From Phycisphaerae bacterium (GTDB lineage: Bacteria; Planctomycetota; Phycisphaerae; UBA1845; Fen-1342), in NCBI GenBank assembly GCA_050115495.1, contig JASFQK010000016.1, forward strand, positions 64,001 through 128,000: a stretch of DNA of 64,000 bases, written 5' to 3'. The stretch's first letter is position 1; each line of letters opens with the position of its first letter. Positions 23,423 through 63,102 of the stretch are shown piece by piece. The notes beneath the pieces were generated by a model, which was given only the letters and a program-made list of their open reading frames with translations, had not been told where the DNA came from and made no database searches. Position numbers and translations under genes: made by a program.

Positions 23423-23470
23423 TGATGTGCAGATGTTCGCGGCGAACGGCTGGACTGAAGGGGTGAGTGG

Positions 23471-24712: not shown

Positions 24713-24760
24713 TGATGTGCGGTTGTCTGCGGCGGACGGTTGGACTGAAGGGGTGAGTGG

Positions 24761-45844: not shown

Positions 45845-47831
45845 GGCTGCCCTCCAGTTCGCAGGTCACGATGTGACCGGTCAGATCCTCGAAGCTCTCC
45901 ATGACTTCCTTGAAGTTGGCGTATTCCTCGGGCGGGATCTGCCACCGTTTGATGCGCAGCTCGCACGTGTAGTGAATCTGGTTGCCGCTGGTCTCGATCT
46001 CGAAGTGCAGCGCGGCCGACGGTCCGTCGAGGTCGACGGGGTCGGGCGTCTCGACAACGCTCCAGCCGTCGGGCAACTGCAACGTCTCCTCGAAGCGGGC
46101 CAGCCGCGTGGCCAGCAGGCTGATGGCGTACTTGCGCTCGTCGAGGCCGGTTTTGCCGAACAGGTCGTAGATGGTGCGGTTGCCGAGCACGCTCTGCATC
46201 ATCGGCAGGGCGATGAAGCGACGACCGGCGGTGCCCAGGGCGTAGTCGGGAGCCTCGAAATCGCAGTGCAGCGTCAGCGGCTCGGAGAAATCAACCGGGT
46301 CCGTGCAACGAATGTTGCTCGGTTTGGCGTTTGGGGAAAGCCGCTGGAAAGTGTCGTCGAAGAACCCCAGACGCTGATCCGGTGGCAGGCCGGCGAGCGT
46401 TCGGCGGAGCCGTCCCTCGGGCGTGCCGCAGGCCACGAAGTCGAGCGAGCCGGTCAGCCCGTTGTGCCCGTCGATAACGGTGCGCGCCTGCCAGGTGGCG
46501 GCGCACTCTTCCGGCGGGAAATAGGGCGACTGCGACAGCTCCTTGCCCTCGGGGATGCCGTAGACCACGTGCTGCAACGGCTCGAGCGTCGACCAGTTGT
46601 CGCGGCTCTTGGTCATCCACGTCGGGTCGAGCAGTTTCAGCGAGCCGTCCGGCCAGCGGATGCAGGTGACGGCGTGGTTGAACTGGTCGGCCGGGATGCG
46701 GTCGACACGTTGCCGGGCCATGGTCATGACCAGGAACGAGTCGTAGCCGGCGACGCGCAACATCGTTACCAGCATGCCGGCCTTGTCCTTGCACACGCCG
46801 CAGCGGTCGTGGAATGTCTCGATGCTCGGGTGAATCGTATAGCCCTCGCACATCCCGCGGCTCGTGCCGGCGTAGCGGATGTTTTCGGCCACCCAGTGGT
46901 TGAGGGCGGTGTACTTCTCCTCGTCGGTGCGGCAGTCCTTGATGACCTCGGCGACGGTGGCCCGGATGTCGTCGTCGGCCTCGAACTGCGGCTCGCTGAC
47001 CTCGTAGAGCCAGCGGCCCTTGTCCTGCCACGTGGGCAGCGTGGCCAGCAGGAGCTTCGGGGCGACGTTTGGTGCCGGCTCCATGCTCGGCTCGCGCTCG
47101 AACGGCGTGATGTTCTCCTTGGTGAAGGTGTACACCATGTGCTCGTCTTCGAGCTGGACGGAGACCCGCACCTCGCCGTTGTAGATCTCGTACTGCAACT
47201 GCTTGTCCGTCGGCACACGCACCGTGAAGCGCTTCTCGATGATCGGCACGCCGGACCAGAAGTCGACCTCGTCGTGCCAGTGCCCCGGGACCGGCGGCTG
47301 GAGGGCCACGCCTAGCGCGTTGCGGTCGTCGAAGCCCGGGTCCGCGAGGTAGGCCACGTTGAAGCCGGTCATGCGGGTGATGGACTCAACGGCGTCGCCG
47401 ATCTCGAGCCGCGGCAGGTCGATCAGGAACTGATCGGTCGGCCAGAAGATGCCGTGGGCCGGCTGGGGCTGCTGGGCGGGCCGGTCGATCGACACCTCCT
47501 CGACGTCGCCGCCGGCGCGGTAGATGCGGAGGGCGACCAGGTCGAGGCGGTTGGTGTGCGGATCGAAAGGAAAGCGCTGGACGGCCTGGCTGCGGATGCC
47601 GCCGTCGCGGAGGATCTTGACGACTTTGTGCTCGGTGGCGATGCCCAGGCCGTTGGGCATGACCGTAACATCTTTGTCGTCAACGACATAGACGACGTCG
47701 GCGTTCCACTTCTCGGCGTCGCCGGCGGCCTCGATCTTGGCGCGGAGATCGTCGTCCGCGCGCAGGGCCGGCGGGCACAGCAATAGCCCGAGTCCGGCCA
47801 GGATGCAGATTCGCAATCGGCAGGTTCTCAT
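45831..47831 (-). CDS. DUF3857-domain transglutaminase-like protein
   Basis: WVAENIRY, GVCKDKA, QFNHAV, LLDPT (Cys-His-Asp triad); signal peptide. Confidence 0.85.
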   Translation of the reverse strand: MRTCRLRICILAGLGLLLCPPALRADDDLRAKIEAAGDAEKWNADVVYVVDDKDVTVMPNGLGIATEHKVVKILRDGGIRSQAVQRFPFDPHTNRLDLVALRIYRAGGDVEEVSIDRPAQQPQPAHGIFWPTDQFLIDLPRLEIGDAVESITRMTGFNVAYLADPGFDDRNALGVALQPPVPGHWHDEVDFWSGVPIIEKRFTVRVPTDKQLQYEIYNGEVRVSVQLEDEHMVYTFTKENITPFEREPSMEPAPNVAPKLLLATLPTWQDKGRWLYEVSEPQFEADDDIRATVAEVIKDCRTDEEKYTALNHWVAENIRYAGTSRGMCEGYTIHPSIETFHDRCGVCKDKAGMLVTMLRVAGYDSFLVMTMARQRVDRIPADQFNHAVTCIRWPDGSLKLLDPTWMTKSRDNWSTLEPLQHVVYGIPEGKELSQSPYFPPEECAATWQARTVIDGHNGLTGSLDFVACGTPEGRLRRTLAGLPPDQRLGFFDDTFQRLSPNAKPSNIRCTDPVDFSEPLTLHCDFEAPDYALGTAGRRFIALPMMQSVLGNRTIYDLFGKTGLDERKYAISLLATRLARFEETLQLPDGWSVVETPDPVDLDGPSAALHFEIETSGNQIHYTCELRIKRWQIPPEEYANFKEVMESFEDLTGHIVTCELEGSHAQR

Positions 47832-47992
47832 TCGTGGTCTCCAGGATTCTCGCTCGCAACCCCGCGCGCAACGCTTCAGCTCGCCGCGTGGTCGGGAGTG
47901 TACCCGATCCGCCCCGGGGCGGCCAACCCGTGATTGGGGGGGCTTCGGCGGGCTGCTGGCTGGTAGCCGTCAGCCCTGAGCCTTGAGCCGGA

Positions 47993-48079
47993 GTGTGGCA
48001 TGCTGAAGCCTTAGGCGCCGGCATGTCTTTCTTCGGCGTCGGGGAGCACATGCCGGCGTTGCGCTTCAGCGTGGCACAC
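47993..48079. repeat. Inverted-doublet palindromic repeat family 2 (other copies 51204-51290, 55991-56053 partial, 59362-59446, 61300-61386)
   Basis: GTGTGGCATGCTGAAGCCTNAGGCGCCGGCATGT...ACATGCCGGCGCTGCGCTTCGGCATGCCACAC-like sequence at each locus. Confidence 0.85.
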
Positions 48080-48145
48080 CCCGTGGCGTCGGCCCCCTGT
48101 GGCCGACGTTGATCGCCGAACGGCGCGAGTCGTGCCGTTTCCGTT

Positions 48146-49540
48146 TCAGGCCGCCGCGTGCCGGATGTCGCGCAGCGCCCGCAGGTAGCGCCGAATGGCG
48201 AACGCCAAGCCCAGCATCGGCGGCGTGAACACGGCGACCAGCATCGTGCCCTCGGCCAGAAGCATTCGGCCGGTTGGCAGGTGGTCGACCCATTTTCCCC
48301 ACGGCGTGAGTCCGTGCAGCCCGGCAATGGCGAGAAACGACAGCGGCAGCAGAACCCACATCGGCAGGAGGAGGACGGTCGCGTAGGCGGTCACAACCGT
48401 CGTCGGTCGCGGATCACGCAGCCCGAACCGGCAGGCCAGCAGGGCCACACATCCGCCGCCGATCATCGTGAGCAGCAGCGGCAACAGCGTGAGCATGCCA
48501 AGCACGAAGACCAACTCGAACCAGGATTCGCCGACGTCCGAGTCCGAGCGGATGTCGTACCAAACCGGCCCCGCGACCACCAGCAGGACCCAGAGGGCCG
48601 CCAGCCAGCAGACCCGCATGGCGAACCGCACCACCTGCTCCTGCCCGTCGTAGACGACGAGCGTGCGGAAGAAGTGCGGCTGACGCAGGATCCGCCAGGA
48701 TGTGCCAGGAAACGCCAGAAGCCGCCGGCCGAGACCGCGCGCCGTGGCCCACGCCGGCGGTTGACGCGTGCCGGGCAGCGAGGCGGCGACTTCGAGCCCA
48801 CACTCGGGGCAGCGGCCGTCCGTGGGCAAGCCGGTCAGTCGATAGCCGCATCCGTCGCAGCACGCCGGCCGGCGTTCGTCGCCATCCTGATCGAGCCAGT
48901 GGACACGCGAGCCGAGCCACAGCAGCAGGTGGAGCCAGTACACCGCGGAGGCGACTGCGGCGAGCACAACCAGCAGGTCTTCATCGAAGCCGGAGTCCGG
49001 CATCTCCCGCACCAGTACGATCAGCGCCAGCACGCCGGCGGCACAAGGCACGATGGCCAGGCTGCTCCAGAGGACGAGCTTGAGCGCCCGGCCGAAAGCC
49101 CGTCGCCGCTTGCTGGCGCTGGCGACAAGCGGTAACAGCCCCCAGGCGAGCAGCCAGCAGAGTGCGTGACCACAAAGCGGCGGGATGACCACCGGCAGCA
49201 CGTCCCCTCTGCTGACGAGCACGTGCGCCTTCTCCACCGCGATGACCAACGGCAGCCGAATCTGCTCCCCGAGGCTCAGGCCGGTGAGGTCCTCCGTCAC
49301 GAGGTCCGGACCGGCGGATTCGAAGACCAGCAGCACGAACGCCGTCCACAGCAGCAGGGGCACGATGTGCACCAGCAGCGCGACGAAGATGCTGGTGCAG
49401 GCCAGACGTGGACCGAGACGTCGCGGCAGCACGAGCTGTCCCACCAGCGCCGGCAGGAACAGCAGGACGCCGATCGGCCGGGCCGGGATCGCCGGGGACC
49501 GCGGGGCGCATTCCCAATATTCAGGAACGACGTTGGTCAC
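48146..49540 (-). CDS. Array family A, copy 1: polytopic membrane protein with central zinc ribbon
   Basis: VVPEYWE N-terminus; CDGCGYRLTGLPTDGRCPECG; WRILRQPHFFRTL; C-terminal LRDIRHA; GTG overlaps the stop of the family-B gene. Confidence 0.85.
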   Translation of the reverse strand: MTNVVPEYWECAPRSPAIPARPIGVLLFLPALVGQLVLPRRLGPRLACTSIFVALLVHIVPLLLWTAFVLLVFESAGPDLVTEDLTGLSLGEQIRLPLVIAVEKAHVLVSRGDVLPVVIPPLCGHALCWLLAWGLLPLVASASKRRRAFGRALKLVLWSSLAIVPCAAGVLALIVLVREMPDSGFDEDLLVVLAAVASAVYWLHLLLWLGSRVHWLDQDGDERRPACCDGCGYRLTGLPTDGRCPECGLEVAASLPGTRQPPAWATARGLGRRLLAFPGTSWRILRQPHFFRTLVVYDGQEQVVRFAMRVCWLAALWVLLVVAGPVWYDIRSDSDVGESWFELVFVLGMLTLLPLLLTMIGGGCVALLACRFGLRDPRPTTVVTAYATVLLLPMWVLLPLSFLAIAGLHGLTPWGKWVDHLPTGRMLLAEGTMLVAVFTPPMLGLAFAIRRYLRALRDIRHAAA

Positions 49541-51072
49541 GGCTCGACGTCCTCGCTGTCAGGTTCGGGCAGGAACTGGCCGATGGGCGTCGGCACCAAT
49601 TCGGGTTCGCACTTCGGGTACGGCCGTGGCGAGGAGTAGAGCACGTCGTAATCGTCAAACGATCTGTTCTGGGCACCGTACGCAACACCACCGTCGTCGT
49701 CGCCGTCCCGACCGCGACAGTAGAGCACGTAGCCGTCGCCGTCGCGGCGATAGAGAAACGGAGCGTCGCCGAACGGGTCGAGTGGAAAGTCGGCGATGTA
49801 CGTGGGGGTCAGTTCCGCGAGTGTCTCCGGATAGACGCCACGTTCGCTGCGAAAGCGGCTGAGGGCGATCGCCAGACGCGTCCCGTCGACGGCGGCACCA
49901 ATATCCAGCGCACGTCGGTAGCCGTGCGTAATCACGGAGACCTCTGCGTAGCGCAACGCGGGGCCATCGACCAGGCTGAAGGGGACCGTGCGTCTGTACA
50001 GACGGTCCATCTCCGTCGCCGCGTCTGCGTACGTCAGCTCGGGCAACCGGCGCAGGTCGTCGCAGTATCGTGCCCACTTGGCCTCGACCGTGCGGCGATC
50101 GCTGTAGAGGAATGATGTGAGGTTCCAGAGCGGGTGCTGCGCGGCGTCTTCGCCGGGAGGTTCGGTCAGGAGCCGTTCCATCAGCAGCCGTTGCCGACTG
50201 AGGACGTACCAGCCGTGGCCGCTGGCGTCACGCGTGTAGCAGGTGTCGATGATGGTCTGGTACATGACCTCGTTGCCGGCGATGGCTCTCGACCACATCT
50301 GGCTCGGCGTGGGTAGCTGACGCAACACGCGGTCGATGTCGGCGGCGAGAGCGTCGTCGAGCGTGTGCTCGCGGCTCATGTGCTGCAGTTCTGTGAGGCA
50401 GCGGTAGAAGCACGATTCGCGGACGAGCATCACGATTAGCGTGTCGACCGATTCCGGCTGCGCCAGCCACAGGGCGGATTGCAGGTCTTCCCAGGCCATC
50501 GCCAGGTCGCCGCGCTCGGCGTGCTGGTAGCGGGCGTCAGCGGTCAAGTGTGCGGCCATCTCGCGCATGTGCGTCAGGTCGATCCCCTCGTAGCCGTCCT
50601 GCAGAGTGCGCATGTGATCGTATTGCCACGGCCGCCCGCGCAGGTCACGCAGCGCGGCGAGGCGCTGCCGGGTAGCATCATCTGTGAGATGGGTGATCGC
50701 CGCTTGGAGGTGGGGGCGGTCCGCCGGCGTCCATTCACCGCGGGCCACGTCCTCCATGTCGAGGTCGTTCTGTCGATAGCTCTGGGGCCGCTCCCAACGC
50801 ATCCCTGCCGGCGGCGCCGGCAGGACGAGCGGTACGTCTTCCGTCAGGGCGAGGACGTGCTCGGTCACTTCCGCCGTCACGTCGTCGGGTTTCGGCGGGC
50901 CCGGCGTGGTGACGCCCTCGAAGATGTCCTCCACGCGCCGCGGCGGCTCGACGGTCAACCGCAGGTATACGTACCGCGTGCACCACCCGACGAGCAGAAG
51001 GGCGATCACCAGGTGCAGGCCCCTGCGGCGCCAGCGGCGGGCGCGGTCGGTCCTCCCCGGTACAGCAGTCAT
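49537..51072 (-). CDS. Array family B, copy 1: single-TM protein with GspG-C-like tail
   Basis: YLRLTVEPP; ADARYQHAERGD; HPLWNL; YPETLAEL.P.YI..PLDPF...YRRDGDGYVLY.RG.DGDDDGG. Confidence 0.85.
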   Translation of the reverse strand: MTAVPGRTDRARRWRRRGLHLVIALLLVGWCTRYVYLRLTVEPPRRVEDIFEGVTTPGPPKPDDVTAEVTEHVLALTEDVPLVLPAPPAGMRWERPQSYRQNDLDMEDVARGEWTPADRPHLQAAITHLTDDATRQRLAALRDLRGRPWQYDHMRTLQDGYEGIDLTHMREMAAHLTADARYQHAERGDLAMAWEDLQSALWLAQPESVDTLIVMLVRESCFYRCLTELQHMSREHTLDDALAADIDRVLRQLPTPSQMWSRAIAGNEVMYQTIIDTCYTRDASGHGWYVLSRQRLLMERLLTEPPGEDAAQHPLWNLTSFLYSDRRTVEAKWARYCDDLRRLPELTYADAATEMDRLYRRTVPFSLVDGPALRYAEVSVITHGYRRALDIGAAVDGTRLAIALSRFRSERGVYPETLAELTPTYIADFPLDPFGDAPFLYRRDGDGYVLYCRGRDGDDDGGVAYGAQNRSFDDYDVLYSSPRPYPKCEPELVPTPIGQFLPEPDSEDVEP

Positions 51073-51159
51073 CGAAGCCCTCCACGTCCGCTCGATTGCG
51101 GCAACGATCGCGCGTCACCATGAGCGACCGGCCCGCCGCCACAACGCTATCTGGCGTGC

Positions 51160-51187
51160 ATTCTCCGCCGGCGATCCGTCCCGTCAA
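51160..51187 (-). promoter_or_regulatory. Conserved promoter TTGACG-N16-GAGAAT (unit 1)
   Basis: Same hexamers and spacing upstream of all four array units. Confidence 0.7.
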
Positions 51188-51308
51188 CCCGGCGGGTGGG
51201 CGGGTGTGGCATGCTGAAGCCCTAGGCGCCGGCATGTCTTTCTTCGGCGTCGCTGAACACATGGCGGCGCTGCGCATAGGCATGGCACACATCCGTGGCG
51301 GCACCGAC

Positions 51309-51334
51309 GTAGCGTCGGCCCCCGTGGCCGACGT
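51309..51334 (+). repeat. GTAG-type REP (further copies at 48083-48109, 55921-55947, 59450-59476, 61396-61422)
   Basis: gtagcgtcggcccccgtggccgacgt. Confidence 0.8.
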
Positions 51335-51377
51335 CGATTACCAAGGAACGCTCGAATCGCACGCTCGCCCCGCGGCC

Positions 51378-52775
51378 CTAGTCGAGCGCGTTGCGGATGT
51401 CGCGTAGCCCGCGGGCGTACCGCCGGACCGCGAAGTACAGTGCCGCCATCGGCGACAGGAATACTACCGGCAACACACACGCCTGCGCGAATTGCAGTGC
51501 CGAGAGCGCCGGCTCTTCGATGCCGTTGTCCGGCGACAGGTGCCACTGCGACAGGGCGAGTCCGACCGCGCAAACGGGCAGCAGCAGTCCCAGTGGCAGG
51601 AAGAGCGCTGCGGCGTAGCCGGTCAGCACCGTCGTCGGCCGTGGATCGCGCCAGCCGAACCGGCAGGTCACGAACGCCGCGATCCCGCCGGCGAGCATCG
51701 TGATCAGCAGCACCCCCAGGAACAGGCCGCCGAAGAGGAGGGTCGCCGTCGGCCAGTACTGGGGTAGGCCCACGTCACGGAGCAGCGCCCAATCGAGCGG
51801 CGCAGCGCACACCAGAAAGTGCCAGATCGCGACAATCCAGCACATCCGGACGGCGAAGCCGACCGCCTGGCTGCGTCCGTCGCGCACGGCGAGCGTGCGG
51901 AAGTAATGTGGTTGGCGCAGGATCTGCCAGGTCGTGCCGAAAAACGCGCGGAAGCGCCCTTCCAGACCGCGGGCGGCGAACCAGGGCGGCTGCGAGCGGG
52001 CGGTGGGTAGCGACGCGGCCAGTTCCAGCCCGCATTCCGGGCAGCGGCCCGTGATGGGCAGACCGGTGATCTGATAGCGGCAGCCGACGCAGTGCGGCGA
52101 TCGTCGCTCAACGGCCTCCCGGCCAAGGCGCGGGACACGTGAGCCGAGCCGCAGCAGCACGTACATCCAGCAAACCGCCAGCAGCACCAGCCAGAACAGG
52201 ACGAGCCAGTAGTCCACGTCTCCAGCGAAGGAGATGGTTTTCCGTCTCAGTACGATCACGCCCGCGAGGCCAGCGGACGCAGGCACGAACAGAATGCTGC
52301 TCCACAACGTGAGCTTGAGGCACTGGCCAAACGTACGCCACCGGCTGCCCGCATCGCCGACAAACGGCACGAGACCCCAGGCGAGAATCCAGCAGGCGGC
52401 ATGGGCGGCAAGCAGCGTGATCAGGAAGGGCCACACGGTGTACGCGCCCACCAGTGCCTGCGACATCTCAACCCCGACCACGCCCAGCACCCGCACGCGC
52501 TCCAGGAAGCTCGACTGGGCGAGTGTGCTCTCGATGTCCCACGGCCACCGCGGAGCAATGGCGAGCAGCGGGGGAACCACGGTGAGGAGCAGGGCCAGCC
52601 CGTGCGCCAACACCGCCTTGAACGGACTGGAGCGGACCAGCCGTGGTCCGAGACGCGCGGGGATCAGGAGCAGGCCCGCCAGAATTGGCAGGAAGAGGAG
52701 GTAGCCAACCGGCCGAGCCTGAACGGGCGGCTCTGCCGGCGTGGATTCCCAGTACTCGGGGACGACGTCGGTCAC
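51378..52775 (-). CDS. Array family A, copy 2
   Basis: CVGCRYQITGLPITGRCPECG; WQILRQPHYFRTL; LRDIRNA. Confidence 0.85.
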   Translation of the reverse strand: MTDVVPEYWESTPAEPPVQARPVGYLLFLPILAGLLLIPARLGPRLVRSSPFKAVLAHGLALLLTVVPPLLAIAPRWPWDIESTLAQSSFLERVRVLGVVGVEMSQALVGAYTVWPFLITLLAAHAACWILAWGLVPFVGDAGSRWRTFGQCLKLTLWSSILFVPASAGLAGVIVLRRKTISFAGDVDYWLVLFWLVLLAVCWMYVLLRLGSRVPRLGREAVERRSPHCVGCRYQITGLPITGRCPECGLELAASLPTARSQPPWFAARGLEGRFRAFFGTTWQILRQPHYFRTLAVRDGRSQAVGFAVRMCWIVAIWHFLVCAAPLDWALLRDVGLPQYWPTATLLFGGLFLGVLLITMLAGGIAAFVTCRFGWRDPRPTTVLTGYAAALFLPLGLLLPVCAVGLALSQWHLSPDNGIEEPALSALQFAQACVLPVVFLSPMAALYFAVRRYARGLRDIRNALD

Positions 52776-54301
52776 GGTGTGCCCTCATCTGGATGCCCGC
52801 CAGGCCGTCGGCTCCTGCCGCGAATCGGCTCCAGACTGGGCTCGTCTCGTGGCTTCGAGCGCGGCTCAGAGTAGAGCCCGTCACCGTCGTCGGCCGACCC
52901 GGAGTGGGGATCGCGTGGCATACCGCCATCGTCATCGCCGTCTCGCCCGTGGGAGTAGAGGACATAGTCGTTGCTCCCCACCGGCCGGTAGCCAAACGTC
53001 GCCCCGCTGAACGGGTCGGCCGGCAGGGCGGAGAGATACGCGGGCACGAGTTCGGCGAGGGCTTGGGGATAGGCCCCGTGCTCGCCGCGAAAGCGGGCCA
53101 GGGCGAGCGCCACGCGCGTCGCCTCACGCGCGGCCTCCCCACAGACGCGGCGGCTGTAGAGGTTTTCGTAGCTGTGCCAGCAGAACCAGCACAGGACGCG
53201 TCCGTCCAAAAGGTCAAACGGCAGGCCGGGGCCCGTCAGCCGCTCCGCCTCGGCCACGGCTTCGGCGTAGTCCAGCTCGACGACACGGCGCAGGGCGCCG
53301 TAGCACGACGCCCGCTTGGCTTCGACAGTCTGGCGGTCGTTGTAGAGGAACGAGGCGAGGTTCCAGATCGGCAAGCACGCGTCGGGGCCGACCGGGTCGA
53401 AATCAAGCAGCCGCGCGGAGAGCGGCCATTGGCGGGAGAGCACAAACCAACCTTGGCCGTTCGCGTCGCGCGTGTAGCTGGCGTCGATGATGGCTTGGGC
53501 CACGGCCTCCTCGCCGGTGATCGCCGCAGGCCAGGTCCGGCTCAGCGAGGGTAGCTGGCAGAGCTGGTCGTCCATCTCCTTCAGCAGATCGTCGTCGAGC
53601 GTGTGCTCGCGGCTCATGAAGCGCAACTCGTCGAGGCAGGTGCGAAGGCAGGTATCCTGTGCGTACGCTGGCAGAGTGCCGTCTATCCGAAGGTCCCGTG
53701 CCACCCAGAGCGCGGTTTTCAGGTCTTCCCAGGCCGCCACGACGTCGGCCTGCTCGGCATGCTGGTAGCGGGCGTCGGCAACGAGCAGGAACGCGATTCG
53801 ATAAAGGTGTGACAGGCAGAATCCGTCATAGCCCGGCTCTTGCGAGCCACACCAGTCGAACTGCCAGGGCCGTCCGCGCAGGTCATGGAGGCTGGCGATC
53901 CGCTCGCGCGTGTCGTCATCCCGGAGATAGTCGATGACCGCCCGGAGGTGAGGGCGGTCGGCGGGGGTCCACGGGCCGCGGAGCACATCTTGCGGCGAGA
54001 GCACGTACGTGTTCCCCGCGGGCCAAGTCCACTTCATTCCCTTCGGTGCCGGCGGCAGGCGGTAACGGACCTCTTCCGCCACGGTGAGCGCCAGCTTCGT
54101 CAGCTCCGCCGTGGCGTCATTAGGCTCCCGCGGGCCGGGGGCGGTTATGCCCTTGAAGATGTCCTCGACACTCCGCGGCGGCTCCACGGTCAGCCGTAGA
54201 TACGCGTACCACCCGAACCAGCCGAGCAGCAGGGCCGCGATGCCCAGGCGCAGACGGCGCCACCGTCGAGCGCGGGCGGTCTTCGTCGGCGCGGCGGTCA
54301 T
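52772..54301 (-). CDS. Array family B, copy 2
   Basis: Family-B motifs; ATG overlaps the stop of copy 3 (ATGA). Confidence 0.85.
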   Translation of the reverse strand: MTAAPTKTARARRWRRLRLGIAALLLGWFGWYAYLRLTVEPPRSVEDIFKGITAPGPREPNDATAELTKLALTVAEEVRYRLPPAPKGMKWTWPAGNTYVLSPQDVLRGPWTPADRPHLRAVIDYLRDDDTRERIASLHDLRGRPWQFDWCGSQEPGYDGFCLSHLYRIAFLLVADARYQHAEQADVVAAWEDLKTALWVARDLRIDGTLPAYAQDTCLRTCLDELRFMSREHTLDDDLLKEMDDQLCQLPSLSRTWPAAITGEEAVAQAIIDASYTRDANGQGWFVLSRQWPLSARLLDFDPVGPDACLPIWNLASFLYNDRQTVEAKRASCYGALRRVVELDYAEAVAEAERLTGPGLPFDLLDGRVLCWFCWHSYENLYSRRVCGEAAREATRVALALARFRGEHGAYPQALAELVPAYLSALPADPFSGATFGYRPVGSNDYVLYSHGRDGDDDGGMPRDPHSGSADDGDGLYSEPRSKPRDEPSLEPIRGRSRRPGGHPDEGTP

Positions 54302-55788
54302 TGTGGTCCTCCGTCCATCGGCACTAACCTGGGCTCGCACATCGGATCCCGGCGCGGCCCGGAGTAGACCAGGTCACAGTCGTCGACACGCCGGCCTCCC
54401 GGGCTGGGAGCGGCGCCGCCGTCGTCATCGCCGTCCGGACCGCGCGAGTAGAGCACATAGGCCTCGCCATATCGGCGATAGAGGAACGGCGCGTCCCCGA
54501 ATGGATCCAGCGGCAGAGCGGACATGTACGCCGGCACGAGTTCGGCCAGGCTCTCCGGGTACTTCCCACGTTCGCTCCGGCAGCGGCCGAGGGCGAGCGC
54601 CAGACGCGTCGCGTCGATTTCGGCATGCGTGGCCAGCAGTTGGCAGTACGCCTGCACAAGAGCCGGTGTGCACAGCCCCTTGAGAACGGCGCCGTCGACC
54701 GAGCAGAAGGGTCCGTCGCGCAGGCCCAGCCGATCAATGCTGGTCCGGGCGTCCGCGTAGGTCAGGTCGACGAGCTGGCGCAGCGCATCGAAGTACCGCG
54801 CACGCTTGGCCTCAACCGTGCGGCGATCGCTGTAACAGGCGGACGCCAGGTTCCAGAGCGGGTGTTGCGCGAACGATCGAGGAATCACAGCCAGCAGTCG
54901 GTTCTGTTGCCGGCTGACCACGTACCAGCCCTGGCCGTGCTGGTCGCGAGTGAAGCACGTGTCGATCGTACGTTGGATCATCGCTTCCTCGTGGATCACG
55001 GCCGCGCGCCACGTTTCGCGCAACGGAGACCATGCGCGCAGGGCGGCGTCGATCTCCGCGACGAGCGCCTTGTCCGGGGCATGCTCGCGGCTCATTTGCT
55101 GCAGTTCCGAGAGAAACAAGCGTGCGTGGCTCAGTTGCAGGATCACGCCGAGCGCGGACTCCGGTTCATCGGGCTGCGAAAGCCAGATCGCCGTCTTCAG
55201 GTCCTGCCAGGCGGCGGCGAGATCGCCACGTTCGGCATGTTGGTAACGGGCGTCGGCCGCCAGCAGAACGATCGCGCTGTACCGCTTCCACATCTCCAGG
55301 CCGGCGTAACGGGGCTCGTCCGAACGGAAAAAGTCGTACTGCCACGGCCGCCCGGACAGGGCGTGCAAGGCAGCGAGGCGTTCACGCGTCAGGTTGTCGC
55401 CGAGATGGGCGATTACGGCCCGTAGGTGGGGACGGTCCACCGGCTTCCACCAGCCACGCGTGATGTCGCCAACGGCAAGGTACTCCGGCGTCTCTTGGCG
55501 GTGCCACTGCCACTTCATGCCCGCCGGTACGGACGGCAGATCGAACGGGACCTGCTCCGTCAGCGTGAGGACGAGTTGGCCCAGCTCAGCGGTGACGTCG
55601 TCCGGCTCCGGCGGGCCGGGGTCGGTCGCGTCCGCGAAAGCGGCCTGCTCACTGAGCGGCGGCTCTACCGTCAGCCGCAGGTACGCGTACCGCCCGAAGT
55701 GGCTGAGCAGGAGGACGGCAATTGCCAAGTGTGAAATCCACCGCCACCAGCGACCAGCGCCAGCGGCCCTCCCCCATGCAGTGGTCAT
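54298..55788 (-). CDS. Array family B, copy 3
   Basis: Family-B motifs; GGGAGG RBS. Confidence 0.85.
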   Translation of the reverse strand: MTTAWGRAAGAGRWWRWISHLAIAVLLLSHFGRYAYLRLTVEPPLSEQAAFADATDPGPPEPDDVTAELGQLVLTLTEQVPFDLPSVPAGMKWQWHRQETPEYLAVGDITRGWWKPVDRPHLRAVIAHLGDNLTRERLAALHALSGRPWQYDFFRSDEPRYAGLEMWKRYSAIVLLAADARYQHAERGDLAAAWQDLKTAIWLSQPDEPESALGVILQLSHARLFLSELQQMSREHAPDKALVAEIDAALRAWSPLRETWRAAVIHEEAMIQRTIDTCFTRDQHGQGWYVVSRQQNRLLAVIPRSFAQHPLWNLASACYSDRRTVEAKRARYFDALRQLVDLTYADARTSIDRLGLRDGPFCSVDGAVLKGLCTPALVQAYCQLLATHAEIDATRLALALGRCRSERGKYPESLAELVPAYMSALPLDPFGDAPFLYRRYGEAYVLYSRGPDGDDDGGAAPSPGGRRVDDCDLVYSGPRRDPMCEPRLVPMDGGPQ

Positions 55789-55884
55789 GGTAATCCTCCC
55801 ACTTACGCCGCGGCAGTCGGCACGCGGCGACGATCACCTGTTGCGATCGCCAACCGGCGCGGCGCCGCAGCGCTATCTACCCCT

Positions 55885-55912
55885 ATTCTCTATCGGCGAT
55901 CGCATTCGTCAA
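55885..55912 (-). promoter_or_regulatory. Conserved promoter TTGACG-N16-GAGAAT (unit 2)
   Basis: ttgacg aatgcgatcgccgata gagaat. Confidence 0.7.
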
Positions 55913-56077
55913 CCCGGCGCGTGGCGTCGGCCCCCCGTGGCCGACGTCGATCGCCAACGGACGCCCAGCTTGCGTGCAGCGTCCGGCGGGGTGTGGCATG
56001 CTGAAGCCTCAGGCGCCGGCATGTCTTTTCTTGGCGTCGGGGAGCACATGCCGAATGGCGCGCGACACGCGCGTCTG

Positions 56078-56159
56078 TCCGAGCCGCGATCGGGAGCGAG
56101 CGGTGTGCGCGGACGGCGCGTTGCTGGCGGCAACCCGTCGCTACCGCTCGGGGCTCGGA
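56078..56159. repeat. Palindromic repeat family 3 (other copies 59529-59610, 61857-61938)
   Basis: TCCGAGCCGCGATCGGGAG...GGCGGCAACCCGTCGCTACCGCTCGGGGCTCGGA with inverted ends. Confidence 0.8.
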
Positions 56160-56235
56160 TCGGCGTTGACACGCCTCACCCGTCACTACCGCTCAGGGCT
56201 CGGGTTTGTGCTGCGTGGGTCGCTCCCCCATTCCG

Positions 56236-57663
56236 CTACGTCATCGCGTGCCGAACGTCCTGCAACGCAACGAAATACCGCCGCAAGCCGACCACGAACG
56301 CCCACACCGCCGGCGTGAACGCCACGACCAGCGCGATCCCGTCGGCCAGCAACAGCCCTGATTGCGGCAATTCATCGACCCACACCTTCCACCCCGTGCA
56401 CATGTGCAGAACGGCCAGCGCCGCCGGCGCGAGTGGCAGCAGCAAGCCTACCGGCAGGAAGAGCGCCGCCGCGTAGCCGGTCGCGGTGGTTGTTCGCCCC
56501 GGGTCGCGGAATCCGAACCAGCACGCCGCCAGGGCGACCAGCCCGCCGACGAACGTGGTGATCAGCAGTGTCCCCAGCAGCAGCATGCTGAGCAGCAGCA
56601 CCATCGCCGGCCAGAACTCCTCGCCGACGCTGTCGTCGGCTTCGGCGAGACCGACCGGTACGGCGGCCACCAGCATCGTCCACACCGCCACCAGCCAGCA
56701 CGTGCGTATGGCGAAGCGCACGGCTTGCACCTGGCCTGCGTGCACAGCCAGCGTGCGGAAGAAGTGTGGCTGGCGCAGAATCCGCCAGGATGTGCCAAAC
56801 CACGCCCGGCAACGCCGAATCGGACCCCGTGCCGTCGCCCACGCGGGCTGTCGGCGGGCGTCGGGCGACGCGTCGGCGGATGTCCCGCGGATACCGGGCA
56901 ACGATACGCCGACCGCCAGGCCGCATTCCGGGCACGTGCCGTCGACCGGCAGTCCGGTGAGCCGATAGCCGCAGCCGGTGCAGCACGGCGGTCGCTTCTC
57001 GGCCTCCGTCCCGCTGAGCCGATGCACGCGCGAGCCGAGCCACACCAACAGGTGCAGCCAGTACACACCCCAGGCGAGCCAACCCACGACGATCAACAGC
57101 TCTTCATCCCACTCGTACGCCGAGTAGTGGTACCTCGCGGCCAGCAGGGCCGACAGACCGGCGGCGAACGGCACGAACGAGAGGCTGCTCCAGAAGGTGA
57201 GCTTCAGTGCGCGAACGAACGTACGGCGCCGCGTCCCGCCGCTGGCGACGATCGGCACCAGGCCGCGGGCTAGGAACCAGCAACCCACGTGGCCGGCGAC
57301 GAGCCCGATCACGAGCGACATCGCGTTGGGGCCGCTCGCGGTCGTTTGCATGCTCTCCACGGCGAAGACGAGCGGCAGGCGGATGATCTCCGAGGTGGTC
57401 ATGTTCGCTGTCGACACTGAGCGCAACTCGAGCTCGTCGGGCTCCAGGCCGATCAGCACCAGACCCGTGCCGAGCACCAGGGCCGCCAGATGCACCAGGA
57501 TGGCCAGGAAGACGCTGGAGCACGCCAGCCGCGGCCCCAGTCGTCCGGGCAGCACGAATTGCCCCACAGCCGCCGGCAGGAACAGCAGCAGGCCGATCGG
57601 ACGTGGCTGGATCGGCGGCTCCGCGGCCGGGGATTCCCAATGTTCGGGGACGACGTCGGTCAC
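56236..57663 (-). CDS. Array family A, copy 3
   Basis: CTGCGYRLTGLPVDGTCPECG; WRILRQPHFFRTL; LQDVRHA. Confidence 0.85.
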   Translation of the reverse strand: MTDVVPEHWESPAAEPPIQPRPIGLLLFLPAAVGQFVLPGRLGPRLACSSVFLAILVHLAALVLGTGLVLIGLEPDELELRSVSTANMTTSEIIRLPLVFAVESMQTTASGPNAMSLVIGLVAGHVGCWFLARGLVPIVASGGTRRRTFVRALKLTFWSSLSFVPFAAGLSALLAARYHYSAYEWDEELLIVVGWLAWGVYWLHLLVWLGSRVHRLSGTEAEKRPPCCTGCGYRLTGLPVDGTCPECGLAVGVSLPGIRGTSADASPDARRQPAWATARGPIRRCRAWFGTSWRILRQPHFFRTLAVHAGQVQAVRFAIRTCWLVAVWTMLVAAVPVGLAEADDSVGEEFWPAMVLLLSMLLLGTLLITTFVGGLVALAACWFGFRDPGRTTTATGYAAALFLPVGLLLPLAPAALAVLHMCTGWKVWVDELPQSGLLLADGIALVVAFTPAVWAFVVGLRRYFVALQDVRHAMT

Positions 57664-59219
57664 GGTTCGCTCTCCTCAGATTCCTCTTCAGGTTCCACCT
57701 CGGTCGCGCTCTCGCCGATCGGCACGAGTTCGGGCTCGCACAGTGGCCGTGGACGCCTGTAGGAGTAGAGCGTGTCCGGGTCGCTACGGGCAGTGCGATC
57801 GGGAAACCACGTCTTGCCACCATCGTCAACGCCGTCGTCGCCGCGCGAGTAGAGCACGTACGTGTCACCGTCTCGGCGATACTGAAACGGCCCGTCGGCG
57901 AACGGGTCGAGTGGCAGGTCGGGGATGCAGGTAGGGACGAGTTCGGCAAGGGTCTCCGGATAGACGCCGTGTTCACTCTTGAAACGGCTGAGGGCTAGCG
58001 TCAGACGCGTCGCGCCCGCGGCGGCGTAGGTGGCGACGGTGTCCTCGTAAGCCCACGGTGTGGACCAGAGCATTACCAGGTGAAGCACGCCGCCATCCAA
58101 GCTGGTGAAAGGCGACTCTGGTGCGGTGAAGGACTCCCCTCTGGGGGCCATTTCGTCTACCACTGCCAGAGCGTCCGCGTAGGGCAACTCGGGCAGTGAG
58201 CGCAGGAGGTCGTAATATGCCGCCCGCTTGGTCTCAACGGTCCGGCGGTCGTTGTATAGGACCGAGGCGAGGTTCCAGAGCGGAAGTTGGCCGGCGGTTG
58301 CCAAGGCGGTGTCGCGGGAAAGCCGCTTCAGGAGCGGTTGCCGGCGACTGAGGACGTACCATCCTTGGCCGGTGCCGTCGCGCGTGAAGCAGGCGTCGAT
58401 CAGACGCTGTGTGGCGGCCTCTTCGCCGTTCATGGCTGCTGGCCAGGTCTGACGCGGCGAGGGCCACTGGCGCAACACGCGGTCGATGTCGGCGGCCAAG
58501 GCGCCGTCGACGATGTGCTCACGGCTCATGTGCTGTAGCTCTGGCAGGAAGAGCCGCGCGCAACCTGCTTGCAGGAGTACAGTGAGCAAGGTCTCCACCT
58601 CGACTGGCCGCGACAGCCAGATCGCCGTCTGCACGTCCTCCCAGGCGGCCGCGAGGTCGCCGCGCTCCGCGTGCTGATAGCGGGCGTCGGACGTCAGCAA
58701 CTTGACGGCGGCGCGCCGTTGCGTCAGCGAGATCCCCTCGTACGTGCCCCGCCTGAAGCCGTACTGGTCGTAGTGCCAGGGCCGCCCACGCAGGGCGCGC
58801 AGGGCGGCGAGGCGCTCGCGCGTGGCGTCGTCCTCGAGATGAGCGATCACGGCCCGCAGATTGGGTCGGTCCGCCGGCGTCCACGGGCCACGCGTGATGT
58901 CCTCTATGCTGAGATGACCCGCGTCATAGTCGTACCGCCACTTCCACGCCATCCCCTCCGGCGGTGGCAGCGTGAATGGGACCTCCGCGGTCAGGGCGAG
59001 GACGAGCGTCGTCAGCTCCGCCGTGACATCGCCCGGCTCCGGCGGGCCGAGCGGGACCGTGCCAGCGTACACGTCTTCGACACGGATGGGCGGCTCGACG
59101 GTCAGTCGCAGGTAGGCATACCACCCGAACCAGCCGAGCAGCACAGCTACCACACCCAGGCGCATACGCCACGGCCACCGGCGACGAGCGTCAGCGGGTC
59201 TCCCGGGCGTGCCAGTCAT
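57660..59219 (-). CDS. Array family B, copy 4
   Basis: Family-B motifs; start MTGTPGR by alignment; GGGAGG RBS. Confidence 0.85.
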   Translation of the reverse strand: MTGTPGRPADARRRWPWRMRLGVVAVLLGWFGWYAYLRLTVEPPIRVEDVYAGTVPLGPPEPGDVTAELTTLVLALTAEVPFTLPPPEGMAWKWRYDYDAGHLSIEDITRGPWTPADRPNLRAVIAHLEDDATRERLAALRALRGRPWHYDQYGFRRGTYEGISLTQRRAAVKLLTSDARYQHAERGDLAAAWEDVQTAIWLSRPVEVETLLTVLLQAGCARLFLPELQHMSREHIVDGALAADIDRVLRQWPSPRQTWPAAMNGEEAATQRLIDACFTRDGTGQGWYVLSRRQPLLKRLSRDTALATAGQLPLWNLASVLYNDRRTVETKRAAYYDLLRSLPELPYADALAVVDEMAPRGESFTAPESPFTSLDGGVLHLVMLWSTPWAYEDTVATYAAAGATRLTLALSRFKSEHGVYPETLAELVPTCIPDLPLDPFADGPFQYRRDGDTYVLYSRGDDGVDDGGKTWFPDRTARSDPDTLYSYRRPRPLCEPELVPIGESATEVEPEEESEESEP

Positions 59220-59315
59220 CGAAGCCCTCCCATTTACGCTACGGCGGGCGAAGCGGGCCGACGTTCGCCTGTTGCGACCGCCAGCCGGCATGGCGCCGCA
59301 GCGCTATCTGTCTCT

Positions 59316-59343
59316 ATTGTCTGTTGCTCGGCCGGCCCGTCAA
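59316..59343 (-). promoter_or_regulatory. Conserved promoter TTGACG-N16-GACAAT (unit 3)
   Basis: ttgacg ggccggccgagcaaca gacaat. Confidence 0.7.
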
Positions 59344-59652
59344 CCCGGGGGGTGGGAGAGAGTGGCATGCTGAAGCCTCAGGCGCCGGGATGTCTTCTTC
59401 GCGTGGTGGGGACCACATGCCGGCGCTGCGCTTCGGCATGCCACACACGGTAGCGTCGGCCCCCCGTGGCCGACGTCGAACGCCGAAAGACGCCCAGCTT
59501 GCGTGCAGCGCCCGGTCTGCGCCGTCTGTCCGGGCCGCGACCGGTAGGGAGCGGTGTACGCGGACAGCGCGTTATTGGCGGCAACCCGTCGCTGCCGCTC
59601 GGGGTTCGGACGGGCGTTGACACGCTTGACCTGTCGGTGCCGCCCGTGCCCT

Positions 59653-61164
59653 TCATGGCTTACCCGGCGTGCCAGTTCCGATCGGCACCAGTTCGGGTTC
59701 GAACGCTGGGTCCGGACGCCCGTAGGAGTAGACGTAGTCCGGGTCCCTGAAGGAGGGCCTCCCGGGCCTGAGCGTAACGCCGCCGTCGTCGATACCGTCC
59801 GAACCACGCGAATACAGCACGTACCCGTCGCCATCCCGGCGATACGTGAACGGCGCATTGGCGAACGGATCGAGCGGCTGGTCGGAGATGTACATGGGCA
59901 CGAGTTCCCCCAGCGTCTCCGGGTACACCCCGCGTTCGCCCTTGAAGCGGCAGAGGGCGAGCATCAGACGCGTTGCATCGATTGCGGCATACGTAGCGAG
60001 CAGTTGGCCGTACGCGTCCCGAAGATGATGCATGTCGATTGTGTTTAGAGCGACGCCGTCGACGGGGCAAAACGGCCGCGGGGGGGTGCCCAGTCGGTCC
60101 AGTTCGACCAGGACGTCGGCGTAGCTCAGATCAACGAGACGGCGCATGGCGTCGAAGTACGCGGCTCGCTTCGCTTCGACGGAGCGGCGATCGTTGTAGA
60201 TGACGGACGCCAGATTCCAGAGCGGGTGCTGGGCGAACGCCCCGCAAACCGGTCTGGCGACCCACGTCAATCGCGGGTCAGATTGCCGGCTGGGCACACA
60301 CCATCCCTGACCGTTCTCGTCGAGCGTGAAGCATGCATCGATCGTATGCTGGACGTTTGCCTCTTCGCCGGCCACGGCTGCTTGCCACGTCTCGTCGAGC
60401 GGAGGCCACTGGCGCAGCGTGGCGTCGATCTCCGCGACGAGCGCGGCATCGAGCATGTATTCGCGACTCATATGCCGCAGCTCCGTGAGGACGATATGAA
60501 CAGGGGCGCGTCGCATGATCACAGTAAATGCGGTCTCCTCCTCCTCGGGCCGTGCCAGCCAGAGAGCAGTTTGAAGGTCCCGCCAGGCGGCGGCCAAGTC
60601 GCCACGCTGCGCATGCTGGTAGCGGGCGTCGGCTACCAGCAACTGAACGGGGTACCGCCGATTCGACCACGTGATGCCCCTGTAGTTGGGCTGGATCGAG
60701 TTATCGAAATCGAACTGCCACGGCCGTCCGCGCAGGGCGTGCAGGTTGAGAATGCGCAAGCCCGTGAGGTTGTCCTCCAGATGGGCGATTACCGCCTGCA
60801 GTTGAGGACGGCTTGCCGGCGTCCACTCGCCGCGGACGGCATCCCTGATTTCAAGACACGTTAGCGGCCCGCGGCGATGCCACGTCCATTCCATCCCCTC
60901 CGGCGGCGGCGGCAGCGTGAGCGGTACGAGCTGGGTCAGAGGGAGGAGGACCTCGGTTAGCTCGGCGGTGACGTCGTTTGGCTTCGACGGGCCGGGGTTG
61001 GTCGCGTTGCTGAAAACGGCCCAGACGCTGAGCGGTGGGTCCACGGTCAGCCGCAAGTACGCGTACCGTCCGAAGCACGCGAGCAGCAGGGCGATGACCA
61101 CGAGGCGCAGAACCCACCGCCACCAGCGACGAGCGCGGGCGGTCCTCCCCGAGGCAGCAGTCAT
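59653..61164 (-). CDS. Array family B, copy 5 (no family-A partner)
   Basis: Family-B motifs; start MTAASGR; GGGAGG RBS. Confidence 0.85.
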   Translation of the reverse strand: MTAASGRTARARRWWRWVLRLVVIALLLACFGRYAYLRLTVDPPLSVWAVFSNATNPGPSKPNDVTAELTEVLLPLTQLVPLTLPPPPEGMEWTWHRRGPLTCLEIRDAVRGEWTPASRPQLQAVIAHLEDNLTGLRILNLHALRGRPWQFDFDNSIQPNYRGITWSNRRYPVQLLVADARYQHAQRGDLAAAWRDLQTALWLARPEEEETAFTVIMRRAPVHIVLTELRHMSREYMLDAALVAEIDATLRQWPPLDETWQAAVAGEEANVQHTIDACFTLDENGQGWCVPSRQSDPRLTWVARPVCGAFAQHPLWNLASVIYNDRRSVEAKRAAYFDAMRRLVDLSYADVLVELDRLGTPPRPFCPVDGVALNTIDMHHLRDAYGQLLATYAAIDATRLMLALCRFKGERGVYPETLGELVPMYISDQPLDPFANAPFTYRRDGDGYVLYSRGSDGIDDGGVTLRPGRPSFRDPDYVYSYGRPDPAFEPELVPIGTGTPGKP

Positions 61165-61259
61165 CGCATCCTCCCACTTACGCCGCGGCGGTCCGCACGC
61201 GGCGACGATCACCTGTCGCGACCGCTGGCCGGCACAGCGCCGCAGCGCTATCTACGTTC

Positions 61260-61287
61260 ATTGTCTGCCGCTTGGCCGGATCGTCAA
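61260..61287 (-). promoter_or_regulatory. Conserved promoter TTGACG-N16-GACAAT (unit 4)
   Basis: ttgacg atccggccaagcggca gacaat. Confidence 0.7.
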
Positions 61288-61463
61288 CCCGGTGGGTGGG
61301 TGTGGCATGCTGAAGCCTCAGGCGCCGGCATGTCTTTCTTCGGCGTCGCTGCGCACATGCCGGCGCTACGCTTCGGCATGCCACACCTGCTACCAGTAGC
61401 GTCCGACCTCCGTGTCGGACGTCGAACGCCAACCCACGGTCGTCCTCGCGGTCTTCCGTCTTC

Positions 61464-61800
61464 CAGCCCGCGTAGCGGGCGATGGGATCTAGCCCCGGGT
61501 GAGCGAGCGGACGCATTGCGGCCGATCGCGAAACCCGGGGAAGACGCCGGCCCGAACATCCCAACCCGCGAAGCGGGTGACGGAATGCGGTCCGGGGCGT
61601 ATGACCGGCGATGCGTTTCGTCGCCCGCTTCGCGGGCTGCAGAGGGGTTCGGGATGCGTCCTTCCCCGGGTTCCGTCCGCCGGTGGCGCGTGTTCCCGGG
61701 CCGGTCGTAGCTGCCAGCAGGGGATCTGTCGCGCATTTCGCCTCGCTCGCCGGCGGACTCCACCCGGGGCTACCTTCCTGGGCCCTTCGGGACCAGCGGG
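61464..61800. repeat. Extended palindromic intergenic element (CCCGCGAAGCGGG hairpins and CCCGGG arms)
   Basis: agcccgcgtagcgggcga, acccgcgaagcgggtga and the inverted tcgcccgcttcgcgggct. Confidence 0.55.
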
Positions 61801-61977
61801 CTCGCGCCTTCTGTATCGGTCGTTGAACGCCGAAGAGAGCGCGAGGCGCACTTCTGTCCGAGCCGCGATCGGGAGAGAGTGGTTTGCGCAGACGGCGCGT
61901 TATTGGCGGCAACCCGTTGCTACCGCTCAGGGCTCGGATTGGGGCTGTGGGGCTCCGCCGGAATGCCGGCGGATTGA

Positions 61978-63102
61978 TCAGGGCGCCGTCGCGGGGGCGC
62001 TGTCGCTGGAGGGTTGGGTGGCGGGAGCCGATTGAGGGGCGAAGCTGGCGAACCAGTCACGCAGGACGCGCTCCGCCGGCTTGCCGCGCGGCGTGTAGCC
62101 GTAGTCGCCGGCGCCGCCGGGAGCGTGCGACCAGTCCCACCAGATGATGCCGGCCATGCCCGGCGTGTCGTTCCACACGCGCAGAAACGCCTCGTACAGC
62201 CGGCGTTGCTCCTCGTGGCCGGCGGGCGTCGCTTTCTGGTAGTGGTAGTAGTTCCACGGGGCCGTGCTCGCCCCCTCCTGGCTGCACCAGCCGACCTCGG
62301 TGAACAGCAGCGGCTTGCCGATCTGCCGCTGCCAGCGGGTGATGTCGTCGTGGATCGGCTGCCAGCGGGCCACGATCTGCTCGACCGTCGGGTTCGCCTT
62401 GTCCGACAGCGTGTAGTAGCTGGTCATGCCGATCAGGTCGAGCTTGTCCCAGAACTTCACCGGCCGGTAGTGATCCCAGTTGGCCGAGTAACCCAGCACG
62501 CCACCGTAGAAGTTCGTGCGGGCCAGTTCGATCACCTTGTACCACTCGTCGGTGTACTTCTCCGTGCTGACCAGCTCCGAGCCGACCATCAGGCCGGTCG
62601 CCCCACCCTCGCGAGCGATTTCGCAGAAGTAGACGATCAGTTCGCGATACTGCCGCCACCAGTCGTCCCAGTCGGGTGGGTCGATCACGCCGCGCCACTC
62701 GCTACCCCGCGGCTTGGCCAGCAGGACGATGGGCATCAGGATGACTTCGAGGCCTTCTTCGCGGGCGGCCTGGATGAGCTGCTTGAATTCGGGCGGCGAG
62801 GGTGTCTTGCGGGCTTCGATGAAGATCGTCTGGGCCTCGGCGTGCTCCATGAAGGCGGGGGTGATGAGCAGGACCGTGTTGGCCCCCATCTCCGCCGCCT
62901 CGTGGAACAGTGGCGCGTACTGGTCCAGCGGCTCGTACCCGCTCTGCACCTGGATGGCCAGACCGCGGTAGCGCATCGGCTGGCCGGGGGGCAGGGGGGC
63001 ATGGGATCCCGGCGGGTTGCCGCGCTCGTCGCAGCCCAGGCCCGCGCCCAGCAGGACCCCCAGCAGCACCGCGACGATTGTGGCAGCCGTCTTTCTGGTC
63101 AT
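61978..63102 (-). CDS. Glycoside hydrolase family 113-like lipoprotein
   Basis: Lipobox GLGC; SEWRG.I.P, VGSEL, YSANWD, FWDKLDLIG, PLLFTEVGW, YTPRGKPAE. Confidence 0.8.
   Translation of the reverse strand: MTRKTAATIVAVLLGVLLGAGLGCDERGNPPGSHAPLPPGQPMRYRGLAIQVQSGYEPLDQYAPLFHEAAEMGANTVLLITPAFMEHAEAQTIFIEARKTPSPPEFKQLIQAAREEGLEVILMPIVLLAKPRGSEWRGVIDPPDWDDWWRQYRELIVYFCEIAREGGATGLMVGSELVSTEKYTDEWYKVIELARTNFYGGVLGYSANWDHYRPVKFWDKLDLIGMTSYYTLSDKANPTVEQIVARWQPIHDDITRWQRQIGKPLLFTEVGWCSQEGASTAPWNYYHYQKATPAGHEEQRRLYEAFLRVWNDTPGMAGIIWWDWSHAPGGAGDYGYTPRGKPAERVLRDWFASFAPQSAPATQPSSDSAPATAP

Follow-up and report, generated by a model that had tools for sequence, protein, structure and literature searches.

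A tandemly expanded two-gene envelope module conserved in one order of the Phycisphaerae

The window analysed here is a 64,000-nucleotide stretch of a Phycisphaerae bacterium (GenBank assembly GCA_050115495.1, contig JASFQK010000016.1, positions 64,001 to 128,000), which contains at 47940..61940 an array of eight intact minus-strand open reading frames of two protein families, A and B, in the order [B][B-A][B-B-A][B-A]. The array consists of four tandem units of a two-gene module, with B1 and B3 as spare B copies. The module is undescribed, is conserved in one order of the Phycisphaerae and is locally expanded. We assign a probability of about 0.45 to the reading that the array is a duplicated repertoire of receptors and partners, in which B would be an anchored periplasmic receptor and A its membrane partner.

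The number, order, intactness and divergence of the eight genes, as given in a preliminary description of this DNA, are borne out, and the BLAST identity among the copies is 49-58% between B proteins and 45-53% between A proteins. Each of the three A starts overlaps a B stop as GTGA, as had also been noted, and the B4 start overlaps the B3 stop as ATGA, which gives four stop/start overlaps of 4 nt each. The starts of B1, B2 and B4 were picked by alignment and Shine-Dalgarno-like sites, as longer open frames exist. The proposal that the module is an undescribed envelope system agrees with the searches, in which no Pfam, NCBIfam or PADLOC family was matched at cut-off; the T2SSG scores of B were 12-15 bits against a cut-off of 21, and none of six proteins matched a PADLOC model at E 0.01. 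No description of the A family, the B family or the pair was found in a literature search that left most subscription journals and supplements outside its scope.

Distribution of the module and co-inheritance of its genes

The B-A pair of the window (type I) was searched for with a profile of the first half of A. As a result, type I A was found in 81 of the 251 genomes of the order and in none of 300 genomes elsewhere in the phylum, where at most ten candidates were scored per genome. A single listed A place is present in 61 of the 81 genomes. The 108 listed A places were reduced to 107 by dropping the second piece of a split gene; the B places set against them were 134 of the 150 on the list and two further ones. 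B lies directly upstream at 90 of the 107 A places (85 by coordinates and 5 on inspection); the remaining 17 comprise 8 at contig ends, 8 without an adjacent B and 1 left over. Of the 17 pairs inspected, 14 have a B-A junction between −8 and +14 nt. The source genome carries two further B-A pairs, on contigs C38 and C42, which come from another clade.

The co-occurrence and co-divergence of A and B, which the preliminary description had proposed to examine by phylogeny, were both found. The A and B trees of 34 pairs correlate with a rho of 0.74, a value reached by none of 2000 shuffles, and share 14 of 19 and 14 of 18 supported splits, respectively, without strong conflict. This tree agreement represents co-inheritance of A and B. 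Both trees give the array topology (B4-A2,(B2-A1,B5-A3)); B4-A2 is probably the oldest unit, B2-A1 and B5-A3 appear to be sister units, and the spare copies B1 and B3 are probably mutual closest relatives. The split that sets A2 apart in the array is likely to be old because A2 groups with P0021, a protein from another source.

Copy number, which had been proposed as a check, varies among relatives, and the window array is thus not unique, although it is the largest among those seen. Seven other genomes carry smaller type I arrays, which are [B-A] three times with a truncated middle A (G433), [B-A] twice (G492, G431 and G393) and [B-B-A] (G532, G384 and G442). G431 and G393 share their tandem pairs as orthologues. 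In the source genome, L007 (G000:C36 2986-5728) consists of two distant members of the A family in tandem, with no B, and similar A-A pairs occur at L115 and L116.

No third gene was found to recur beside the pairs in a scan of 76 proteins, drawn mostly from 105 immediate neighbours, where the largest neighbour cluster had 6 members, including a sulfatase. Type II secretion or pilus machinery and ATP-binding cassette (ABC), membrane fusion protein (MFP) or toxin genes did not recur beside the examined pairs, and no sigma factor lay beside the examined type I pairs. A pattern scan of metagenomes confirmed none of 103 candidates, and a plasmid search with A3 gave no match.

The two families also occur in a second geometry (type II), formed by B', a clade paralogous to B (hhalign 99.8%), and A', a half-size protein with a zinc ribbon and a Yip1-like half (hhalign 99.1% to A). 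A' is present in 119 of the 251 genomes, with the type II pairs mostly in single copy. B' and A' lie tail-to-tail at no fewer than 108 of 150 listed places, with 85 B' matches unlisted, and converge at 29 of the 30 best inspected loci (27 counted by script and two with an overlap of more than 300 nt), the remaining one being at a contig end. An overlap of 27-111 nt between their 3' ends was measured in four cases, and such tail-to-tail overlap of sister pairs could keep receptor and partner co-regulated, if these roles are true. A third gene order, A then B, is found at L067. The persistence of the A and B families together is stronger evidence of partnership than one operon, because the families stay together in different gene arrangements. 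The B-domain family is tied to Yip1-like proteins in two gene geometries. In the source genome, the type II form is seen at L003 (G000:C18 102015-109708), where four tandem B' genes converge on one half-size A'.

Predicted structures of the B and A proteins

B belongs to a large, unnamed family with Atlas clusters in Planctomycetota, Verrucomicrobiota and Armatimonadota, and in a sample of 121 genomes from the whole phylum, 49 contained matches to its domain; the closest relatives among named records are two Phycisphaerales bacterium records at 41-42% identity. The AlphaFold2 model of B3, obtained from a 41-row alignment (pLDDT 88.9, pTM 0.88), predicts an Arg-rich start, an N-terminal helix at residues 9-40, a helical domain at about 60-370 and a C-terminal alpha/beta domain, hereafter the head, at about 370-482. 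In the model, the head aligns to EpsG with a VIA Z of 7.4 (root-mean-square deviation, rmsd, 2.7 over 94 residues), to E. coli GspG with 7.7 (2.6 over 95 residues) and to PulG with 6.5 (2.2 over 86 residues), the matched structures being 4lw9, 3g20 and 5wda at 22-24% sequence identity. These Z values are middling; the rmsd, the identity and the weak sequence matches concur. Pfam T2SSG matched weakly in 11 of the 41 rows, and 2kep GspG (E 0.009) was the sole sensible match of B in the PDB sequence search. The C-terminus of B is accordingly predicted to be a whole major-pseudopilin-type head with the pilin head fold. The helical domain of B resembles only generic helical repeats by VIA, and Foldseek of B against PDB and viral structures gave no match at E ≤ 0.001, from which newness of the fold does not follow.

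The likeness to GspG, previously described for the C-terminal tail, is therefore predicted to extend over the whole head (Z 6.5-7.7). The wider label of pseudopilin-like protein holds for the head only, which is about a fifth of B. The anchor and the head are about 335 residues apart, against the direct head-on-helix layout of about 140-160 residues in pseudopilins, and no secretion machinery recurs. The prepilin motif (G-F/M-x-x-x-E), whose absence had been noted, was found by two patterns in none of the 41 rows, 8 of which are N-terminally trimmed, and the N_methyl domain gave no match in B. Like GspG, PulG and EpsG (PF08334, TIGR01710), B has a predicted head with a long helix, a beta-sheet and an Asp-rich loop; unlike them, it has no prepilin site, stays below the T2SSG cut-off, is three times longer, carries a helical domain between anchor and head, and lies in no secretion operon. 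The loop, whose sequence resembles the pseudopilin calcium site, is present in all five window copies and in 26 of the 41 rows; an acidic Ca2+-binding loop site of pseudopilins is described (PMC13081927), and the loop of the B head would be predicted to bind Ca2+.

These data bear on the explanation that B is an uncleaved accessory pilin, for which A would act as a chaperone in the membrane; B would be an adaptor or priming subunit and would dock on pilus or type II secretion machinery whose genes lie elsewhere. The alignment of the head to EpsG, GspG and PulG and the Asp-rich loop agree with this explanation, and the source genome has a GspG over cut-off on contig C25 among prepilin-type genes (by eye). 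However, the absent prepilin motif, the long distance between anchor and head, the lack of linkage to secretion genes, the loss of the loop in the C38/C42 clade and the fusion of the B domain to HAAS in other loci make this explanation improbable. The B domain defines a widespread unnamed family, which could easily be mis-annotated as a secretion pilin on its weak GspG match; use of a pilin head outside a pilus would widen the known functions of this fold.

B is probably periplasmic and anchored in the inner membrane, because of the positive-inside rule and the signal-peptide-like sequences with which its homologues begin (by eye). The anchor is moderately hydrophobic, two of the five copies being above the Kyte-Doolittle threshold of 1.5. 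In a secreted-looking clade of 700-800 aa (L005, L184, L187-L193 and L199), the B domain stands behind another unnamed N-terminal domain. At L123 (G392:C1), a B gene is interrupted by a 428-aa frame that resembles an inserted element (by eye).

The model of A3 (32-row alignment, pLDDT 89.5) and hydropathy predict about 8 membrane helices after an N-terminal, possibly amphipathic helix. The zinc ribbon is given by four invariant cysteines between the two halves of A, and it is predicted to be cytoplasmic together with the conserved loops. The A profile matches 766 representative proteins at E ≤ 1e-30. The relation to Yip1 that had been suspected was recovered for the second half, which aligns to Pfam-Yip1-positive proteins of relatives by hhalign (90%, E 1.6e-6) and stays below the Pfam cut-off; the A profile matches such proteins with domain E of 1e-6 to 1e-11 over about 180 positions, and the half-size A' aligns to the Yip1 set over 53 columns (hhalign 92%). 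The first half gave weak matches, with E of 0.005 to the Yip1 set, 0.054 to the second half and 0.041 to A'. PF04893 matched none of 32 A proteins directly at E 0.1, and none of 45 at E 0.002. Foldseek of A against PDB gave no match at E ≤ 0.001, and the best VIA Z, 6.9, was to unrelated helices; no solved fold matches, which does not imply that the fold is new. A is thus similar to bacterial Yip1 proteins (PF04893) in its second half and different from them in its double length, its central zinc ribbon and the lack of a direct match. A conserved family with a double zinc ribbon, Yip1 and a C-terminal domain of about 200 aa and obscure kind was observed in relatives, at L073, L075, L078, L079 and L082. 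The domain behind Yip1 looked pilin-like and was considered as a fused B head; this was rejected for want of an alignment between the two (E 0.13).

Few roles have been assigned to the Yip1 proteins of bacteria. YknW, a Yip1 homologue, belongs to YknWXYZ, which protects against SdpC (PMC4338810). On this precedent, the pair may serve envelope protection: at the inner membrane, it may bind or neutralise incoming toxins, peptides or parts of phages, or it may tune an efflux complex in trans like YknW, and the array would be an immunity-like repertoire. The patchy presence (81/251), the recurrent arrays, the spare B genes and the variable outer surfaces would resemble immunity arrays. This explanation is unlikely, since no ABC, MFP or toxin gene recurs beside the pairs (in YknWXYZ terms, no MFP, ATPase or permease gene is linked to A), PADLOC matched none of the six proteins, dN/dS (see below) is never clearly above 1, and the type II pairs are widespread and mostly single.

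It is highly improbable that B is a periplasmic enzyme to which A flips or presents a lipid-linked substrate. Enzymes are commonly laid out as a large helical domain next to a multi-pass membrane protein. However, the only residues invariant across the 41 B rows are P411, D428 and Y437, all within the head, no convincing enzyme fold was matched, and the near-invariant residues of A are the zinc ligands and cytoplasmic Pro, Arg and Trp.

Variable outer surfaces and the proposed receptor role

In the array, the outer loops of A are 21-26% identical, against 58-66% for the cytoplasmic parts, and the identity over the whole family is 0.34 on the cytoplasmic side, 0.19 in the helices and 0.10 in the outer loops. 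For B, variable segments were delimited on 23 sequences of other genomes; within the array, the identity is 31% in these segments and 64% outside them. This pattern of variable outside and conserved inside suits a receptor with a constant inner face. No high-identity window that would indicate gene conversion was found among the copies, and the divergence is even along the genes.

The reading of the array as a receptor repertoire also draws on the relatives of the B domain. At nine loci, a HAAS-like N-terminus precedes the B domain, and the gene for this fusion directly follows PadR; two of these loci belong to a sample of 29 from outside the order, and seven to a set of 16 long B matches chosen by hand. 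Domains fused to HAAS have been proposed, from genomics, as sensors that release PadR (10.1101/2020.09.24.301986; PMC12419801). HAAS has been placed near the Yip1 clan in this context, and the B domain is not among the HAAS fusions described in the parts available. The HAAS-PadR cousins point to a sensing role for the B domain by analogy. They differ from the window B, which has a short basic N-terminus, no HAAS, no PadR nearby and a separate zinc-ribbon/Yip1-like protein as its partner. B-domain genes also follow an ECF sigma factor and a small membrane protein at 3 of the 29 loci (L160, L161 and L168), as a periplasmic accessory sensor does in ECF sigma/anti-sigma operons, from which the examined type I pairs differ in having no sigma factor beside them. 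By membership, the module belongs neither to the pseudopilin systems nor to the YknWXYZ transporters or the HAAS-PadR systems.

In the proposed mechanism, the variable segments of B would bind an envelope or external ligand, B would contact A via its anchor and the outer loops of A, and the conserved cytoplasmic face of A would relay the signal to a common factor encoded elsewhere. The spare copies B1 and B3 would borrow an A, and the units would have been duplicated by recombination at the flanking repeats. The array would thereby give the cell several receptor variants on one common scaffold. Its three natural cognate pairs and two spare B proteins form a test set for pairing specificity.

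Several observations weigh against this reading. In the variable parts, the ratio of non-synonymous to synonymous substitution rates (dN/dS) within the array is 0.72 for B and 1.13 for the loops of A; seven other pairs gave 0.29-1.10. No value clearly exceeds 1, and positive selection is supported by neither set. Relaxed constraint explains the values of the outer parts as well as selection for diversity does, and outer loops often drift. Linkage by itself would make the A and B trees congruent. Eight A genes lack a neighbouring B, and in G030 A lies 2.9 Mb away from B. Type I A is absent from all six genomes of the same genus (84-93% complete). Among the neighbours of type I pairs there is no recurrent output gene, such as a regulator or kinase, and A contains no known output domain. 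Seven of the nine PadR loci came from the hand-chosen matches, a signalling context within 1.5 kb was found for only 6 of the 29 B-domain loci outside the order, and the HAAS scores of 17-26 bits are under the 27-bit cut-off, with no HAAS match at L176. The earlier idea of a diversified repertoire agrees with the variable outer segments but goes too far, their dN/dS of 0.3-1.1 being explained by relaxed constraint.

The same values fit an inner-membrane complex with a structural or assembly function and without signalling, the array being a largely neutral, repeat-driven duplication with relaxed outer surfaces. The outer-part dN/dS near 1, the repeat clusters that flank every unit, the single A place in 61 of the 81 genomes and the other small arrays of the genome (four B' on C18, two A on C36 and 22181-26005 in the window) are in its favour. 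Against it, all eight genes are intact at a dS of about 0.75-1.1 with a framework dN/dS of about 0.3, four promoters are apparently kept, the tandem pairs of G431 and G393 are conserved as orthologues, and the HAAS/PadR cousins suggest sensing; we consider this explanation quite unlikely.

An extension of the receptor reading, which is possible but doubtful, would place B in an undefined receptor superfamily, whose members combine a helical domain that binds the ligand with a pseudopilin head put to a new use. This superfamily would be wired to HAAS-PadR, to ECF (extracytoplasmic function) sigma factors and, within this order, to zinc-ribbon/Yip1 proteins. The last combination would be a new class of transmembrane signalling unit made of two proteins with cognate pairing, and the arrays would be variable receptor repertoires.

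Promoters, spacer repeats and neighbouring genes

The coordinates of the genes, the promoter matches and the clusters of repetitive extragenic palindromic (REP)-like repeats are given in Table 1.

Table 1. Features of the array, in window coordinates
Feature	Position	Strand	Remarks
B1	59653..61164	-	family B, without A partner; closest to B3
B2	57660..59219	-	family B, coupled to A1
A1	56236..57663	-	family A; about 8 predicted membrane helices, central zinc ribbon, Yip1-related second half
B3	54298..55788	-	modelled B; predicted anchor helix 9-40, helical domain ~60-370, pseudopilin-type head ~370-482
B4	52772..54301	-	coupled to A2; ATG overlaps B3 stop; deepest-branching B of array
A2	51378..52775	-	deepest-branching A of array; groups with P0021 from another source
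B5	49537..51072	-	family B, coupled to A3
A3	48146..49540	-	modelled A (pLDDT 89.5)
Sigma-70-like promoter match, unit 1 (B1)	61260..61287	-	sigma-70 scan
Sigma-70-like promoter match, unit 2 (B2)	59316..59343	-	sigma-70 scan
Sigma-70-like promoter match, unit 3 (B3)	55885..55912	-	sigma-70 scan
Sigma-70-like promoter match, unit 4 (B5)	51160..51187	-	sigma-70 scan
REP-like cluster upstream of unit 1	61290..61940		limits approximate
REP-like cluster between units 1 and 2	59345..59650		limits approximate
REP-like cluster between units 2 and 3	55915..56225		limits approximate
REP-like cluster between units 3 and 4	51190..51350		limits approximate
REP-like cluster downstream of A3	47970..48130		limits approximate; folds as hairpins

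The separate promoter that had been assigned to each unit is consistent with the sigma-70 scan of 47500-62200 (14.7 kb), which gave four sites against 1.0 ± 0.8 in shuffles. All four candidate promoters have the form TTGACG-N16-GASAAT on the minus strand, one before each unit, and this exact motif occurs five times in the 6-Mb genome, four of them in this locus.

The spacers consist mostly of genome-wide REP-like repeats. The genome contains at least three families of these palindromic repeats: the first, with 75 copies, folds as a long hairpin, and the others have 186 and 20 copies. Eight matches lie in the 14-kb locus against 0.64 expected. The repeats flanking every unit offer a route for duplication, and they could also have arrived later. 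An Rfam scan of 47000-63000 gave no match.

The array is not an assembly artefact, because in the wetland metagenome run X1, a possible source of the DNA, each unit lies on a single contig with no differences, and the depth over the units, 19-22, is the same as that of the flanks. The contigs of this run break at the spacer repeats, and the order of the units is that of the assembly. Joints between spacers in run X1 were considered as rearrangements; they are short and within repeats, and were taken as repeat artefacts. As a check on recent horizontal origin, the GC content is flat at 0.68 across the locus, and the GC content at third codon positions, 0.78-0.87 in the array genes against 0.89-0.91 in three neighbours, is uninformative.

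Directly downstream of A3, at 43994-47831 on the minus strand, there are two DUF3857/transglutaminase-like/DUF3858 genes, and a GH113 gene lies upstream of B1; neither type was seen to recur beside other pairs. A second small array of the window, at 22181-26005 on the plus strand, encodes three paralogues in tandem, each about 413 aa long, the outer two being 56% and 69% identical to the middle one. All have a zinc ribbon at the N-terminus, a single probable membrane helix and a domain of about 350 aa without a Pfam match. At 19254-22106 on the minus strand, a tandem pair of genes encodes two proteins, both of which carry a stand-alone SecDF P1 head domain.

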